From a virus (lineage: Duplodnaviria > Caudoviricetes), in the IMG/VR virus record IMGVR_UViG_3300031885_000019, positions 1-52,984 of that record: a DNA stretch of 52,984 nucleotides. The stretch is one strand, 5' to 3'. Of this stretch, positions 28,448 through 52,775 are shown one piece after another; positions within the stretch are counted from its first letter, which is position 1; every line of letters starts with the position of its first letter. A program made the translations under genes and the position numbers. The notes beneath the pieces were generated by a model. It did no database searches. It was not told the DNA's origin and was given only the letters and a program-made list of their open reading frames with translations.

Positions 28448-28648
28448 CTACCGATCCGTTAGATCAAGGTGATGGCCTTCGAAGACCGCCACTATGTTGT
28501 CTTCGTCCCGACCGTCGGCCATCACTACGGCATTTGCTATAGCATCCTCTACGCTTTCCGCCTCTACCCATTCAACAAAATCATCTGGCCCGATGCTGTC
28601 TGGGTAGAGCCCGACAACTGTGTACTTCTTTTCCTTGACTTCCGGCAT
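28448..28648 (-). CDS. Early small acidic protein
   Basis: YTVVG...VEAES...VAVFEGH; preceded by the repeated leader. Confidence 0.65.
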   Translation of the reverse strand: MPEVKEKKYTVVGLYPDSIGPDDFVEWVEAESVEDAIANAVVMADGRDEDNIVAVFEGHHLDLTDR

Positions 28649-28658
28649 GTCCTTTCCT

Positions 28659-29101
28659 CTTTTTCGTTTACAACTCTCGGTTTGTGTTTGTTGTTGCTAG
28701 GACACTCGGCCAATCCAGTATGCGCTACGCCGTCGGCTGAATGCCCGATCAAACATCTCCTTGACCGCCCGTGCTATGTCCGGGCGTGTCGCCTCCAGGT
28801 TGCCAGCCTCTACGCCACGAATCACGTAAGACAGGATCGGTCGCCCATTCTCTGCTACGTCTGCAACGCGCAAACACGTTGCTTCGTGTGGCGTATAGAG
28901 ACATGCGCCCATCCCATGCTCGCCGTGGCTGGCCTTGAATGCGTCCGGGCCAGAGTGGTCAAGCGTACAGATCGCGTTGCTGATCAGCACGTACTCCTTG
29001 ACCCGGACATCATAGGCGCAATCGCCCACCTTCAGGTTCTCATTGACATATCCCATTGCCTATCTCCTTTTTCGTTTACAACTCTCGGCTTGTGTTTGTT
29101 G
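28659..29101. repeat. 35-nt direct repeat in early intergenic leaders (28659-28693 and 29067-29101; partial third copy near 29429)
   Basis: CTTTTTCGTTTACAACTCTCGG(T/C)TTGTGTTTGTTG, one mismatch. Confidence 0.9.
28697..29056 (-). CDS. Early hypothetical protein
   Basis: RBS AAAGGAG, flanked by repeats. Confidence 0.65.
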   Translation of the reverse strand: MGYVNENLKVGDCAYDVRVKEYVLISNAICTLDHSGPDAFKASHGEHGMGACLYTPHEATCLRVADVAENGRPILSYVIRGVEAGNLEATRPDIARAVKEMFDRAFSRRRSAYWIGRVS

Positions 29102-30776: not shown

Positions 30777-31049
30777 CTAAGGTGCCTTGGGAGTTGCTAC
30801 TGGGGAACAGCGGGGGCACTGACCGAGATGTTCTCGGTAGTGGGTGTGGCAATAGAACACCCGCTTGATGTCGGCGGGGATCGGGGTTAGGCCATCTGCG
30901 ACCGATTGGCCGTCCCGGACTGTGAAGTATAGGCCACATGGATAGCAGTTCCAGGCATCGGCACCTGGAACTAGGCTCCGGCTTACGTCCCGCTTGAGTC
31001 CGCACTTTGGGCACCGCGGGTAGGAGGCCAAGTTACGTCCACCGCCCAT
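30777..31049 (-). CDS. Zinc-finger protein
   Basis: CPKC, CYPC, CHTH, CPRC; RBS TGAAGGGAGAGG. Confidence 0.65.
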   Translation of the reverse strand: MGGGRNLASYPRCPKCGLKRDVSRSLVPGADAWNCYPCGLYFTVRDGQSVADGLTPIPADIKRVFYCHTHYREHLGQCPRCSPVATPKAP

Positions 31050-31258: not shown

Positions 31259-31459
31259 TTATACCTGGATTGTCCGGCACTTCGTACAGACCAGCCCGCC
31301 CCCGACTGCGGGGACGAACCAGTGGAATACCTCATGGCAGCGACGGCACTCCAGGTCGCTGTCCTCACGCTCCATCAAGTCGTGTCCAGAGGTGTAGGGG
31401 GGCCTGTCTTTCAGCCAACTGAGGAAGGATAGGAAGTGACAGTAGAACCTTCTCATCAT
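31259..31459 (-). CDS. Small zinc-ribbon protein
   Basis: CRRC...CTKC; TAATG overlap with the upstream gene. Confidence 0.55.
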   Translation of the reverse strand: MMRRFYCHFLSFLSWLKDRPPYTSGHDLMEREDSDLECRRCHEVFHWFVPAVGGGLVCTKCRTIQV

Positions 31460-31713
31460 TAACCTACAGGACGCCGCTCTTCCAGCAGGCCAGTGAGGGT
31501 GTCCAGTAGGCACAGGTAGCACTCCCACCACCAGACACCATGTCCAGGTTCCCGCGAGCTGCACTGGGGGCAGTTCTCGGCGTGGTCCTTGTCCACGGTG
31601 CCGTGGACCTCGAAGTAGGGGGCGAAGAGACGGCGCCGGTGGCATCGGTCGCAGCGTGACAGGAGCCGAAAGGTTGGCTCTATGGTCCAGGAATGGGCAG
31701 GTGGGTGTGGAAT
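31459..31713 (-). CDS. Zinc-finger protein (84 aa) with putative AUU start
   Basis: Manual translation with CDRC, CPQC and CYLC; GGAGGGAG 6 nt before ATT; in-frame TAG just upstream. Confidence 0.6.
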   Translation of the reverse strand: MPHPPAHSWTIEPTFRLLSRCDRCHRRRLFAPYFEVHGTVDKDHAENCPQCSSREPGHGVWWWECYLCLLDTLTGLLEERRPVG

Positions 31714-31737
31714 TGCCCTCTCCCTCCAAATACTAAT

Positions 31738-31992
31738 CGGGGTCTAACCCCATAACCCCGTCGTCCCAGGTGCGTGCCCAAAGGCCGCTTCTCGCTCCCC
31801 GGCAGATCTGGACCGGGGCCACCCGCCACTAGTATGCGGGCCCGTGTACCATAGTTCGCCTGGGCTTTCCGCTGGTCAACAGGAACCCGGAGGTTCCTGT
31901 TAGCCCGCCGTGGCTTTCACGACGGCGGGGTAGCGGGGTTAGCGGAGGCTCCTCGGACAGAGGCCACCCGTTGCCTTGGCCTCCGCCTACCC
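31738..31992 (-). ncRNA. Candidate ~255-nt structured RNA or leader
   Basis: Promoter TTGCAA-18-TG.TACAAT (31998-32027); multiple nested helices; no ORF. Confidence 0.6.
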
Positions 31993-32101
31993 TCTTGATT
32001 GTAGCAGGGCGATTCCGGCATTTGCAACAAAGTCTTTTACCGGGGCGCTTCTTATATCAACGATTAGGCCGATATTAGGGTGGAGGTTGCCTAGAAGTCG
32101 A

Positions 32102-32142
32102 AGATAATACAGAGGGCGCCGGATAGAGGATCCGACGCCCTC
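32102..32142 (-). terminator. Intrinsic terminator
   Basis: GAGGGCGTCGGAT / ATCCGGCGCCCTC stem followed by TGTATTATCTT. Confidence 0.6.
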
Positions 32143-32235
32143 CGCTCTCTGAGGCGCGGGGTGTATTGTGGTGGAGAAGGCGGCGACCCTCAGACGCCAC
32201 CACCCCGGCCTTTGAAGGGAGAGAGCTACATTGCG
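32102..32235 (-). ncRNA. Candidate antisense sRNA carrying an anti-Shine-Dalgarno tract
   Basis: Promoter TTGCAT-17-TG.TAACAT (32242-32270); 13-bp terminal hairpin followed by a U-rich tail; 28/31 complementarity to the leader of gene 29587-29790. Confidence 0.6.
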
Positions 32236-32297: not shown

Positions 32298-33233
32298 CTA
32301 CAGATTATCGGCGGGGGAGTAGAGGGCGTGAGCCCTCTGCGCCAGCTCTTCGGCACAGGCGGCCGTGTATCGGCGCAACATTACCACCGACTTCCAGCCG
32401 CAGATCTCCATTATGTCACTGTCCTGGGCACCCAGGCGCTTCATCTGACAGGCGGCCGACCGGCGGAAGGCGTGGACGCCCTTGTGCTGGACCCCTGCCT
32501 CCAAGCAGCGCCGTCTGATGATCTGGAGTACGCCCCAGCCGGTGAGGGGGGTGCCTCGGATGCCACGCCAGAGTGGTGGTTCTGAGATCGTCCAGTGCCG
32601 GATGTACCTCTCTATGGCTTGAAGTGCCGCCAGGCCTAGAGGTACGGTTCTGGTTCCGGTCTTGCCTGTGACCTGAACCGCCCTGCGTTCCCAATCCACC
32701 TCCCGCATCGAGACCAGTTCCCCCTCCCTGACGCCGGTATCATACAAGACGAGAATAAGGGCCCGGTCTCTTATACCCAAAGGACTTTTAGTAAAACAAG
32801 ACTCCAGTAGTCGGCGGACCTCCTCTGTGTTGTAGGTCGGCTGCGGGGTGGTGCGGAAGGACATGAGCGGGATCCCCCGCGTAGGATCCTCATCCAGTTC
32901 CCCTTCTTCCACCAGCCAGCGGAAGAAACGCCGCAGGGCGATCTGGGCCTCGCGCAGGGTCTTGTCCTTGCGCCCGGTCCGGAACTGGATGAGGTACTCG
33001 CGCAGCAGGGCGGGTGTGGTCTTGGTGAGGTCTCGGTCGCCCAGGTAGAGACAGAAGCGCCGGGCGTCCCGGACATAGTGGTAGATGGTGGAGGGCCGGA
33101 GCCCTTCCAGGATGAGTGCGCGGCCGAAGTCCTCTGTCAGATTCAAAGTCAGCGAGCGGCTGTTAACCGCTAGGTTCCAGGTTCGAATCCTGGTCGGGGA
33201 GCCAGTTTCCACCAAGCACCCCTCTAATAACAT
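32298..33233 (-). CDS. int: Tyrosine recombinase / phage integrase
   Basis: SAM-like N-domain, RDRAL...DTGVREGEL, GKTG, HAFRR, GW...MLRRY; start ATG 33233, TTG 33215 or GTG 33212. Confidence 0.93.
   Translation of the reverse strand: MLLEGCLVETGSPTRIRTWNLAVNSRSLTLNLTEDFGRALILEGLRPSTIYHYVRDARRFCLYLGDRDLTKTTPALLREYLIQFRTGRKDKTLREAQIALRRFFRWLVEEGELDEDPTRGIPLMSFRTTPQPTYNTEEVRRLLESCFTKSPLGIRDRALILVLYDTGVREGELVSMREVDWERRAVQVTGKTGTRTVPLGLAALQAIERYIRHWTISEPPLWRGIRGTPLTGWGVLQIIRRRCLEAGVQHKGVHAFRRSAACQMKRLGAQDSDIMEICGWKSVVMLRRYTAACAEELAQRAHALYSPADNL
33151..33204 (+). other. attP core: 3' portion of tRNA-Asn(GTT)
   Basis: Anticodon arm AGCGG-CTGTTAA-CCGCT, T arm CCAGG-TTCGAAT-CCTGG, TCGGGGA-G-CCA; no canonical D arm upstream. 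Confidence 0.85.
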
Positions 33234-33304
33234 CCCCTCGGCCCGATGTCAACCCCCTCAAATGCTAACTCCGCTTGACAATTCCCGCGCCTCTTTCCGA
33301 CAAT
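33224..33304. promoter_or_regulatory. Back-to-back promoters (leftward int; rightward ncRNA)
   Basis: Minus strand TTGACA(33247-52)-17-TG.TATTAG; plus strand TTGACA(33275-80)-18-GACAAT. Confidence 0.55.
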
Positions 33305-33307
33305 GGA

Positions 33308-33478
33308 AGTGTAAGAAGGTGCCCGCTGTTCGAGGGTGGGCCGCGGCGGTCTAACCACCGTCAACTGAGGGGCGGCAGATGGTGTAGGCAACAGGCACCA
33401 ATACCACCTCATTGTTGCACTAGTGGCAACGGTGAGTAACAGGAGCTTTTGGCGCAAGCCGCGGCTCCTGTTTTTCTT
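33308..33478 (+). ncRNA. Candidate ~170-nt structured sRNA
   Basis: Four hairpins then a terminator; no + strand ORF with an RBS. Confidence 0.55.
33438..33478 (+). terminator. Intrinsic terminator
   Basis: AACAGGAGC...GCTCCTGTT followed by TTTCTT. Confidence 0.7.
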
Positions 33479-33590
33479 AGTGTAGGATGAAGTCTATTAG
33501 GAGAGCGAAGAGGATAAGGGGAATCCCCAGGACGATGATCGTCCCAAGGAACACAAATAGGAATCCAGGTTCCGGGCGTTCCTTTGGCAT
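33477..33590 (-). CDS. Single-TM peptide (37 aa)
   Basis: Manual translation MPKERPEPGFLFVFLGTIIVLGIPLILFALLIDFILH; weak RBS. Confidence 0.5.
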   Translation of the reverse strand: MPKERPEPGFLFVFLGTIIVLGIPLILFALLIDFILH

Positions 33591-51428: not shown

Positions 51429-51857
51429 ATGATCCCTTTCCCCGAACTCAAAGCCTTCCGAAATTGGGACGCGACTGGCTCGGATAAGGTGATCTTCATA
51501 GTCCCGAATGGAGAAGTCTACGAGCTTCTCTGGGTCCATGCCGCGGTTGTGGCCACCGCCAACGTGGGCGACCGGCAATTCCGCCTTGTCGTGTACGACG
51601 CTGGGGGGAACCTAACTCTCCAGGCTCTCACAGGCGAGTTCGTCGAGGCCGGTGAGACGTGGGGGATAGCCTGGGCACCTGATCTTCCCCTCCAGGAGGA
51701 TCAGACCGGCGTGAATCTAATGTTTGTCCCTCTTCCGGCCCCACTGCTACTCCCGGTTGGGTATGCCGTTCGGGTGCAGGACGTTAGCGCCATAGATCCG
51801 GACAACGACAGCATGTACCTCGATGCGCTGGTGCGGCGCTACCAGCCGGGCGCGTAG
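51429..51857 (+). CDS. Virion-associated paralogue 1 of 3
   Basis: PFPELKAF...VP.GEVYELL...RQ...W...WAP.LPLQED.TG...P.G. Confidence 0.75.
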   Translation: MIPFPELKAFRNWDATGSDKVIFIVPNGEVYELLWVHAAVVATANVGDRQFRLVVYDAGGNLTLQALTGEFVEAGETWGIAWAPDLPLQEDQTGVNLMFVPLPAPLLLPVGYAVRVQDVSAIDPDNDSMYLDALVRRYQPGA

Positions 51858-51883
51858 GTGGATAACACTATAGGGGTGTGACA

Positions 51884-52312
51884 ATGTTCCCTTTCCCAGA
51901 ACTCAAAGCCTTCCAGGACTTAACCCTGGATGACTCAGCTAAGGCGATCTTCACGGTGCCCGCAGGCGAAGTCTACGAGCTTCTCTGGGTTCACATTCAA
52001 GTTACCGCCTCCGCCAAGGCGGGCAACCGGCAGTTCTGTGTCGATGTCATCGACAACAGCGCCGTCCTCGTTCTCCAGATCCACACAGGCGAGTTCGTCA
52101 CGGCCAACGAGGTATGGGAGATAACCTGGGCACCTTCGTACCCTCTCCAGGAGGATGAGACTGGCGTGAAACTGATGCTTGCGCCTCTCCCAAGCCCCCT
52201 GTCGATCCCGACTGGATGGACGGTGGGAGTGAAGGATTATTACGGCGTGGATGTAGCCGTTGACCACATGCTCGTGAATGCGCTGGTACGGCGCATCTGC
52301 CCAGGCGAATAG
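51884..52312 (+). CDS. Virion-associated paralogue 2 of 3
   Basis: Same motifs; start ATG 51884 or GTG 51878. Confidence 0.75.
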   Translation: MFPFPELKAFQDLTLDDSAKAIFTVPAGEVYELLWVHIQVTASAKAGNRQFCVDVIDNSAVLVLQIHTGEFVTANEVWEITWAPSYPLQEDETGVKLMLAPLPSPLSIPTGWTVGVKDYYGVDVAVDHMLVNALVRRICPGE

Positions 52313-52337
52313 AGGGGCAACACCGCGGAGACGTGCA

Positions 52338-52775
52338 GTGATACCTTTTCCTGAACTCAAAGCCTTCCAGGATTGGGCCGAGAACGATTCGGACAAGATC
52401 CTATTCACAGTTCCTGATAGCGAAGTCTATGAGTTGCTCCGAGTCTACTGCATGTACATAGCTGACGCCAAGAACCAGGACGACCGGCAACTCGTTCTCC
52501 AGATACGTGACACGGCGGGAGTTGTCGTCCTTTCGGCCATCATGGGCGATGTCGTCAGTCAAGGGGAGACATGGTACGTGACCTGGGCGCCGGGTCTCCC
52601 CCTTATCGAGGATGAGACAGGCCTGAAGAAGGCCCTCATACCCCTGCCGAATCCAACACTGATCCCGACCGGGTTTTCCGTGCGGGTGTTTGACATCAAT
52701 GCTGTACTTCCGGCCAATGACGACATGTACCTTGATGCAGTCGTGAGCCGCGACCAGCCGGGCCCGGACCAGTAA
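52338..52775 (+). CDS. Virion-associated paralogue 3 of 3
   Basis: Same motifs; GTG start aligned to the paralogues, RBS GGAG. Confidence 0.75.
   Translation: MIPFPELKAFQDWAENDSDKILFTVPDSEVYELLRVYCMYIADAKNQDDRQLVLQIRDTAGVVVLSAIMGDVVSQGETWYVTWAPGLPLIEDETGLKKALIPLPNPTLIPTGFSVRVFDINAVLPANDDMYLDAVVSRDQPGPDQ

Follow-up and report, generated by a model that had tools for sequence, protein, structure and literature searches.

The viral stretch examined here, IMG/VR virus record IMGVR_UViG_3300031885_000019 (Duplodnaviria; Caudoviricetes), is a linear DNA of 52,984 bases, estimated to be 72% complete, and is referred to in its full length as the window. On its minus strand, between 31738 and 31995, lies the untranslated 5′ part of a leftward early operon, directly after the terminator of the integrase gene (int). 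This leader is a mosaic of three separable hairpin modules (M1, M2, and M3), not one RNA fold, and the worthwhile result is the second of them: M2 belongs to a bacterial small-RNA family, a copy of which the phage took into its early-operon leader with the structure intact. We are highly confident of the anatomy and modularity of the leader and of the homology and covariation of the M2 family, and we tentatively favor, as the explanation of the whole, an early-operon leader mosaic with a captured host-type RNA core, together with the mechanism proposed below. An earlier note, made from the letters of this DNA alone, was partly right, in that the region is non-coding, lies outside Rfam, and is a leader followed by a gene with an AUU start, and it was wrong on a single switch-like fold.

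Anatomy and folding of the early-operon leader

The leader, whose transcript is predicted to start at ~31992, was compared chiefly with that of L002, another IMG/VR contig, which has an integrase 75% identical to that of the window and shares its int 3′ region, terminator, and promoter. Its elements are as follows.

31998-32027, minus strand: sigma-70-type promoter TTGCAA-18-(TG)TACAAT (TTGCAA 32027-32022, TACAAT 32003-31998), with 9/12 consensus positions plus the extended TG; kept in L002
31935-31995, minus strand: module M1, in which GGCGGAGGCCA (31987-31977) has the alternative partners UGGCCUCUGUC (31966-31956) or GCCUCCGCU (31949-31941)
31878-31934, minus strand: module M2 (this copy is called M2a), two hairpins, H2 at 31929-31904 with a GAAA loop and H3 at 31901-31878 with a UCCG loop
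31738-31870, minus strand: module M3, a CCCAGG (31864-31859)/CCUGGG (31770-31765) helix around hairpins 1-3, followed by a 3′ hairpin at 31751-31739
31841-31821, minus strand: M3 hairpin 1, loop AUACUAGUG, with ACUAGU at 31833-31828
31818-31797, minus strand: M3 hairpin 2, loop containing CAGAUCUG (31810-31803), including AGAUCU
31788-31772, minus strand: M3 hairpin 3

All sequence features listed in the earlier note are present on the minus strand after TTGCAA-18-TG.TACAAT, including the CCCGCCGU/ACGGCGGG stem with its GAAA loop, the AACAGGAACC/GGUUCCUGUU stem with its UCCG loop, the junction strands CCGCU/AGCGG, and the outer strands UAACCCCG/CGGGGUUA. The UCCG hairpin ranks first among the inverted repeats of the whole 53-kb window.

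Fold stability was expressed as z-scores from 200 shuffles per stretch. The whole leader of 263 nucleotides (nt) folds at -129.5 kcal/mol with z = -2.48, two of the 200 shuffles being as good. Among the modules, however, the signal comes from M2 alone: M2 (31936-31874) reaches z = -6.37 and is equaled by 0/200 shuffles, whereas M1 (31995-31925) has z = -0.88 (35/200 shuffles equal) and M3 stays near zero (z = +0.40 for 31873-31755 and -0.23 for 31873-31735, with 127 and 88 of 200 shuffles equal). Two stretches of M3 from L002 gave z = -0.70 and +0.53. Comparison with shuffled controls thus bears out the structure of M2, and neither that of M1 nor that of M3.

Relative to L002, the leader shows indels of 121, 6, 1, 3, and 1 nt. 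This pattern marks the leader, which lies on the minus strand just after the promoter, as non-coding, in agreement with the earlier note, and coding potential was rejected. A DNA operator, in the form of an 18-bp imperfect palindrome at 31832-31849, was also rejected because the 6-nt deletion in L002 destroys the palindrome. In gathering mode, Rfam returned no match across the whole window, in keeping with the earlier note, which recognized no tmRNA, RNase P, T-box, cobalamin, or intron motifs. In E-value mode, four matches below threshold appeared in the 1-kb region (CPEB3, sul1, Scr6925, and HOXB13-AS1_2), and L002 gave seven, none of them sul1 or CPEB3.

The modules occur apart in relatives

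In L002, the promoter leads straight into M3, and the 121 nt of M1 and M2 are absent. Further relatives, labeled (a) to (d), came from Logan contigs of four sediment metagenomes, all of them DNA runs that say nothing about expression; parts of the region without contig cover were not used as evidence. Relatives (a), contigs of 568-604 nt, span 31813-32226 with 25 differences and 11 gaps, and 92 unlike letters replace 31725-31812 ahead of the first early gene. Relatives (b), which are 2005 nt in length, retain the promoter and 31995-31925; 8 letters later they resume at 31482, so that 442 nt are deleted, M2, M3, and most of the first gene are gone, and of the modules only M1 remains. Relative (c) passes from 31931-31878 (M2) through 7 letters into the Shine-Dalgarno region, and its loose end upstream of M2 resembles the 3′ end of M3 (…UUAUGGGGUGAGAUUCC…), which gives the order M3 to M2. 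The loose end of relative (d) has a -10-like box 7 nt before GCUACCCC, a stand-alone arrangement. The metagenome contigs also include a full-length variant of the leader.

Since the modules are found apart in these relatives, a single fold closed as a whole is not upheld; the modules are separable, and their order can change. In place of one RNA of ~255 nt, L002 carries M3 only, and others have M1 alone or the end of M3 followed by M2. The proposed closing of the whole by UAACCCCG/CGGGGUUA fails as well, its 5′ partner being absent from L002, though GGGGUUAUGGGG, on the 3′ strand, is conserved there.

Wider searches added little to this set. Phage GenBank records contained no homologue match, and pattern scans of viral contigs for M3, M1, the int 3′ untranslated region (UTR) element, and the M2 consensus returned only the contig of L002 or nothing. 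A pattern scan of metagenome contigs yielded 30 loci, comprising 29 chance matches and the contig of L002, and the integrase search returned L002 together with the unrelated L003. The M3 covariance model, R1, matched 0/151 and 0/93 genomes and nothing in other loci, and neither pattern scans, protein-anchored searches, nor two covariance models recovered any further M3.

M2 belongs to a bacterial small-RNA family

G410 is a metagenome-assembled genome of an uncultured Chloroflexia bacterium, from the same order as the M2-bearing genomes described here. BLAST of the leader region against 401 genomes of its class gave a single match, in G506, that covers exactly 31878-31934 at 77% identity; this copy lies ~7 nt after TTGACA-17-TACTAT and has a U-run at its end. 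R2, a covariance model derived from the phage M2a and G506 sequences, detected a single copy in each of 6 genomes among the 93 available for the order, at 67-86 bits (phage M2a scores 85.2 bits), and none among 150 other genomes sampled from the class; nor did it match in the records of L002 or of two other phages, L070 and L071. A seventh bacterial copy, in G748, consists of the promoter and the first 14 nt, after which the contig ends.

The bacterial copies share a gene-like organization. A promoter with its -10 box ending ~7 nt before GCUACCCC precedes all six, and a clear U-run follows H3 in five, G769 having only a U-rich tail. Just downstream, five of the six have an open reading frame (ORF) on the opposite strand with a Pfam match (RecG, Fpg, RecO, zinc alcohol dehydrogenase, and a weak IS1-like match below the Pfam cut-off), and at the sixth locus, L087, the opposite-strand ORF has no Pfam family. 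Own promoter, terminator, and opposite-strand downstream ORFs together indicate that the bacterial element is a stand-alone small RNA of ~65-70 nt and not a leader.

Two hairpins make up the family structure, H2 with 8+2 pairs and a C·C mismatch and H3 with 10 pairs; its conserved words are GCUACCCCG, GCCACGGCGGG, and AACAGGA...UCCUGUU. In an alignment of seven sequences, seeded from the model's structure so that its pairing percentages lean towards that structure, pairing holds in 140/140 pair cells, and compensatory changes affect 4 pairs. None of 500 shuffles reaches the covariation score of the family, and slid controls pair at 36-56%. The H2 loop swaps among GNRA, UNCG, and CGCG tetraloops; this swapping and the compensatory changes are independent of the model-seeded alignment. 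Twelve G·U cells fix the strand of the family. The phage M2a keeps 20/20 pairs despite ~11 substitutions relative to the bacterial copies, some of them compensatory, and the stem sequence is near-invariant from phage to bacteria, including the C·C mismatch. The phage copy is located 58 nt into a longer leader and continues into GACCAGCGG, with no U-tract after H3. M2a is therefore a homologue of the bacterial family that is not organized as a stand-alone gene.

For the bacterial copy, Rfam returned no relevant match (L082 gave one irrelevant match), and in the literature, as represented by titles and the openings of abstracts, we found no description of the M2 family. M2 thus stands as a well-supported small-RNA family below every Rfam gathering score, tightly linked to nuclease genes (below) in a poorly studied phylum.

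Two rivals to the favored explanation are serious. One, which we rate as possible though on the unlikely side, is a purely cis-acting leader that protects the 5′ end, slows decay or processing, or permits terminator read-through in the 31-kb early operon, with M2a as a recycled stable hairpin pair that plays no part in trans. The leader does stand directly after the early promoter in both phages, M1 in its GGCGGAGGC:GCCUCCGCU conformer pairs nucleotides 4-7 of the predicted transcript, the sequence after the RNA differs between the phages in a way that suggests an operon-level role and not single-gene control, and M2a, having no U-tract, is non-terminating. Such a role is harder to reconcile with a module content that varies freely among close relatives and with the near-invariance of the M2 stem down to its mismatch, which exceeds the need of a mere stable hairpin. 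HK022 put and the lambda nut sites (boxA/boxB) are promoter-proximal antiterminator RNAs of lambdoid phages; the present leader can be likened to them by position only, as a stem-loop RNA at the start of a long operon, right after an early phage promoter, and differs in that its module content varies between close relatives.

The other serious rival is a mosaic of little or no function, in which recombination left scars and hairpins were captured at a hyper-variable site between genes; M2a would then be the copy of a terminator unit, of host or phage origin, in decay. Retention of every pair in M2a through substitutions that include compensatory ones makes this a distinctly unlikely account, as do the changes in M3 relative to L002, which fall in loops or are compensated, even though it would accommodate the whole-module gains and losses among relatives (the 442-nt deletion included), the M1 and M3 folds that are no better than shuffles, and the 80% identity of M3 to L002, near the 76% of the adjoining coding sequence.

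Nuclease genes adjoin the bacterial RNA

The gene divergently oriented upstream of the bacterial RNA encodes an NYN domain in all four neighbors tested (30-39 bits; Pfam cut-off 24.2). Within the order, 5 of 93 genomes have the NYN orthologue, and the RNA adjoins it in 5/5 (that of G748 being cut by the contig end), counts that are not independent events because the genomes are related. Among the seven RNA loci, L082-L088 (in G506, G769, G786, G794, G700, G773, and G748), NYN is found in five and an Mrr-type gene in one: the divergent gene of G786 encodes an Mrr_cat restriction-endonuclease-domain protein (99.6 bits), and that of G773 is of unknown type. The genes that flank the RNA-nuclease pair vary between genomes. 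The association of one small RNA with two nuclease types, in surroundings that vary, would, judged from gene content, resemble a mobile toxin-antitoxin or defense cassette. As a separate observation, the back-to-back nuclease genes have ~180-200 codons, and the NYN frame in G506 appears interrupted.

The NYN proteins match the PADLOC candidate HEC-09 with E-values of 8e-17 to 8e-19. HEC-09 is an NYN-domain candidate defense gene whose profile the proteins beside the bacterial RNA match, yet here an RNA adjoins; the accessible portion of the HEC-09 preprint (bioRxiv 10.1101/2024.01.29.577857) describes a single gene and makes no mention of a partner RNA. No NYN domain was found in the phage window, where M2a is flanked by int and by small CxxC genes.

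A second, diverged copy of M2 in the window

The opposite side of int carries a further copy, on the plus strand.

33403-33480, plus strand: M2b, a diverged M2 copy (R2 match 33403-33472, 28.6 bits, E 1.7e-4 over 95 kb)
33275-33485, plus strand: putative small RNA gene of ~170 nt, with a TTGACA-18-GACAAT promoter (33275-33304) right after a tRNA fragment and M2b as its 3′ end

Relative to the family, hairpin H2′ of M2b has two compensatory pairs, with U-A in place of the C·C mismatch and a 7-nt loop, ACUAGUG; H3′ has the family's stem followed by UUUUUCUU, a terminator U-tract. The plus-strand RNA folds with z = -3.10, and its promoter and first ~70 nt are kept in L002, whose contig then ends.

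Proposed role of the captured RNA

In the explanation that we tentatively favor, M2a is the phage's copy of a small RNA of the likely host order that usually lies beside a nuclease gene (NYN, once Mrr-type). As its U-tract is missing, the element would be made at early-promoter strength, and transcription would run on into M3 and the early genes. M2a and M2b would mimic the host RNA, bind its protein partner, and, as decoys, titrate that partner, which is most plausibly the neighboring nuclease; M1 and M3 may be auxiliary stem-loops particular to the phage that protect the end or take part in regulation. The protein binding, the nuclease as partner, the phage copies as decoys, and the link to defense are what we infer from sequence comparison.

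A precedent is the pseudo-ToxI of phage ΦTE, presented in the accessible portion of its report (PMC3475682) as a phage-encoded mimic of the type III ToxIN RNA antitoxin. As far as that portion goes, the likeness is that of a phage look-alike of a host structured small RNA whose gene adjoins a ribonuclease gene, and which could neutralize that protein. The two systems also differ. ToxI consists of tandem 36-nt repeats upstream of toxN in the same operon; the RNA described here, compared by genes alone, is single-copy, has two hairpins, and is divergent from the NYN or Mrr-type gene, so that the type III arrangement of tandem repeats upstream of the toxin in one operon is not found.

It is conceivable, if unlikely, that the RNA and the divergent nuclease constitute, in Chloroflexota, a new mobile cassette of the RNA-protein toxin-antitoxin or abortive-infection type, and that the two phage RNA copies are decoys that silence the nuclease in infection or lysogeny. 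If true, the cassette and its decoys would be a second, independent case of phage antitoxin-RNA mimicry, in an uncultured lineage. Should the RNA control the nuclease, the phage copies would represent a natural RNA-based counter-defense and offer a direct handle on the function of NYN-type candidate defense genes, of which HEC-09, going by the accessible portion of its preprint, was without phenotype in one screen; otherwise, the leader is a clear example of how large intergenic 'structured RNAs' of phages can be mosaics of small units.

Several observations weigh against the favored explanation. Two of the seven RNA loci are without NYN, and from the assembly of G410, which holds the exact match to the attachment site of the phage, both the RNA and the NYN orthologue are missing. 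Tests of HEC-09 showed no protection from any of the phages used, according to the accessible portion of its preprint (bioRxiv 10.1101/2024.01.29.577857). The M2 consensus pattern occurs in no other IMG/VR contig, and L002 has no M2 within 56 kb at E up to 1, so that a close relative can dispense with M2. M2a might also be a terminator hairpin that was captured and then retained merely for its usefulness as a stable hairpin in the leader, and very few sequences stand behind the analyses of M1 and M3.

Alternative pairings in M1

The earlier note had proposed mutually exclusive 5′ pairings, and both pairings are indeed possible: in the full window leader, constrained folding gives -128.1 kcal/mol for GGCGGAGGC:GCCUCCGCU and -129.5 kcal/mol for the UGGCCUCUGUC pairing, and in M1 by itself -31.8 versus -27.8 kcal/mol. 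In a natural variant, however, one of them is weakened. Metagenome relatives (a) and (b) share the RNA changes C31985U and G31943A, which convert C-G to U-A in GGCGGAGGC:GCCUCCGCU, and in this variant of M1 the two foldings stand at -30.3 and -20.0 kcal/mol. One alternative thus looks maintained and the other not, which points away from a two-state switch, although as a single event in closely related sequences this is weak evidence. In relatives (a), the junction helix CCGCU:AGCGG has an A·G mismatch through changes at 31943 and 31871.

An integrated non-coding RNA of ~255 nt, or a riboswitch-like switch that controls the ATT-start gene through these alternative pairings, is accordingly very unlikely. 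The near equality of the two energies in the full leader and the presence in the strands of Shine-Dalgarno-like GGAGG and anti-Shine-Dalgarno-like CCUCC/CCUCU words speak for such a switch. Yet the modules occur apart, with L002 devoid of M1 and M2; the natural variant weakens one pairing by ~8 kcal/mol and keeps the other; and no riboswitch family matches. A control device dedicated to the AUU-start gene finds no support in the comparison either, because a different 65-codon ORF follows the RNA in L002. The riboswitch or attenuator pattern, with both helices kept and one tied to a terminator or Shine-Dalgarno sequence, is not found, as no terminator follows and L002 lacks M1.

M1 also gave the CPEB3_ribozyme match of the 1-kb Rfam search (31932-31995, E 2e-4), from which it might be read as a hepatitis delta virus (HDV)-like, CPEB3-type ribozyme that would shorten the leader at its 5′ end by self-cleavage. 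The edges of the match lie nearly at the module edge seen in relatives, and the likeness to RF00622 consists of a 7-bp helix that starts with G·U, followed by GUC, and of a CUAA word after the helix. The score of 25.9 bits nonetheless falls short of the gathering score of 35, and the unpaired 5′ flank supplies part of it. The P3/L3 region is missing: the stretch for P2 and P3/L3 has 6 nt against 16 in the model, and no P2/P3 can be placed in the required order. Moreover, the helix supported by the natural variant is the alternative one and not that of the model. The ribozyme reading is therefore exceedingly improbable, and the RF00622 identity, being sub-threshold and without a match in gathering mode, was rejected.

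Conservation and palindromic loops of M3

Between the window and L002, 62/63 pair cells of M3 are paired; hairpin 1 has 2 pairs (of 32) changed on both sides, and two further pairs change to G·U. As many as 117/500 shuffles do as well, and with only two M3 sequences no covariation statistic is meaningful. Covariation among homologues, which the earlier note had named as a check on the structure, is seen in the M2 family.

In both loops, two bases differ symmetrically between the sequences and self-complementarity persists: L002 has GCUAGC in place of ACUAGU, and GGCC in place of the GAUC core of loop 2. These changes leave room for the dimerization that the earlier note had suggested for the palindromic loops. 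The loop word ACUAGUG is common to M3 hairpin 1 and H2′ of M2b. It follows from these features that M3 hairpin 1 (AUACUAGUG) might kiss itself or the plus-strand ACUAGUG loop beside the attachment site and so control the early operon. RNA-based control of this kind has models in the CI RNA of phage P4 and in plasmid copy-control RNAs. The same word in two phage RNAs, the symmetric changes, and the fact that the central GAUC to GGCC change involves adjacent bases, and so is not an intramolecular pair, would all suit a loop contact. Against it, there are only two sequences, loop 2 has an 8-nt palindrome in the window but one of only 4 nt in L002, palindromes of the GGCC type are frequent in G+C-rich DNA, the change in loop 1 is alternatively readable as a closing pair on a CUAG tetraloop, and the contig of L002 ends before its plus-strand loop. 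Overall, we consider such a contact highly improbable.

The sul1 RNA (RF03058) was rejected as an identity for 31793-31846, where it scored 27.2 bits against a gathering score of 36.2 and where the M3 of L002 gave no sul1 match at E up to 10; the likeness lies in a pair of neighboring G+C-rich hairpins, the second of which has GAUC in its loop.

Phage identity and layout of the window

Genes run leftward from ~34.7 kb (DNA polymerase A, helicases, DnaB, and a UvsX-like recombinase) and rightward from 35.2 kb (terminase and major head). Three features of the int region frame the leader.

32298-33233, minus strand: tyrosine integrase ORF (Pfam Phage_integrase, 2e-23)
33151-33207, plus strand: probable core of the phage attachment site (attP), the 3′ part of a tRNA-Asn(GTT) gene, 57/57 identical to G410; overlaps the 5′ end of the integrase ORF
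32109-32145, minus strand: intrinsic terminator of int, 16 pairs followed by a U-rich tail, which parts int from the leader promoter

The first ~30 codons of the integrase ORF are the antisense of the tRNA gene, and in 10/10 bacterial loci that match only those codons a tRNA-Asn(GTT) gene lies under the match. The tRNA fragment inside the ORF indicates that the integrase ORF is over-extended at its N-terminus and that its true start lies further in. An attP core matching a Chloroflexota tRNA-Asn identifies the window as a temperate Chloroflexota phage with attP upstream of int. The leader lies on the opposite side of int and is hence not the attachment site. An attP or host-gene fragment as the source of the leader RNA was rejected, as the attP core is elsewhere (33151-33207) and BLAST gave only chance-level matches among 401 Chloroflexota genomes; no tRNA or tmRNA gene was detected in the window.

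The stem of the int terminator covaries in L002. Between it and the int stop codon, a stretch of ~85 nt on the minus strand (32150-32235) is near-identical in L002, more so than the integrase itself, and has the top summed contig depth in 4/4 metagenomes. Combined with the terminator, the stretch gives a strong fold (z = -6.32). It begins with GCUCUCUCCCUUC, the complement of the phage's usual Shine-Dalgarno word, and has one chance-level match among the 401 genomes of the Chloroflexota sample. This stretch may be a 3′UTR control element of int. Elsewhere on the plus strand, a 107-nt unit occurs in 3 copies at 455 nt spacing (51430-52445; 74-75% identical to the reference copy), and a 65-nt unit in 2 copies at 408 nt spacing (28629-29101; 80% identical).

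Early genes downstream of the leader

31459-31727, minus strand: first early gene, 84 codons, Cys-rich (CxxC), with its Shine-Dalgarno GGAGGGAGAGGG (31727-31716) and an ATT start (31713-31711)

The product of this gene is 63% identical to its homologue in L002, has no Pfam family, and was found elsewhere only in the contig of L002, where the extra 65-codon ORF lies between M3 and the first-gene homologue. The AUU start proposed in the earlier note is corroborated, the aligned codon being ATG in L002 and TTG in one metagenome contig. Two more small Cys-rich (CxxC...CxxC) genes without a Pfam family follow at 31259-31465 and 30780-31049 on the minus strand, and the third of the Cys-rich genes has homologues in two other complete phage records, L070 and L071, to which a search with the second CxxC gene also led. 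No homologue of the leader RNA was found in these two records, which share a CxxC gene with the window. In L070, a tandemly duplicated G+C-rich intergenic unit (760-1020) lies upstream of a TTGACA...TATAGT promoter, in the same position as the leader of the window.

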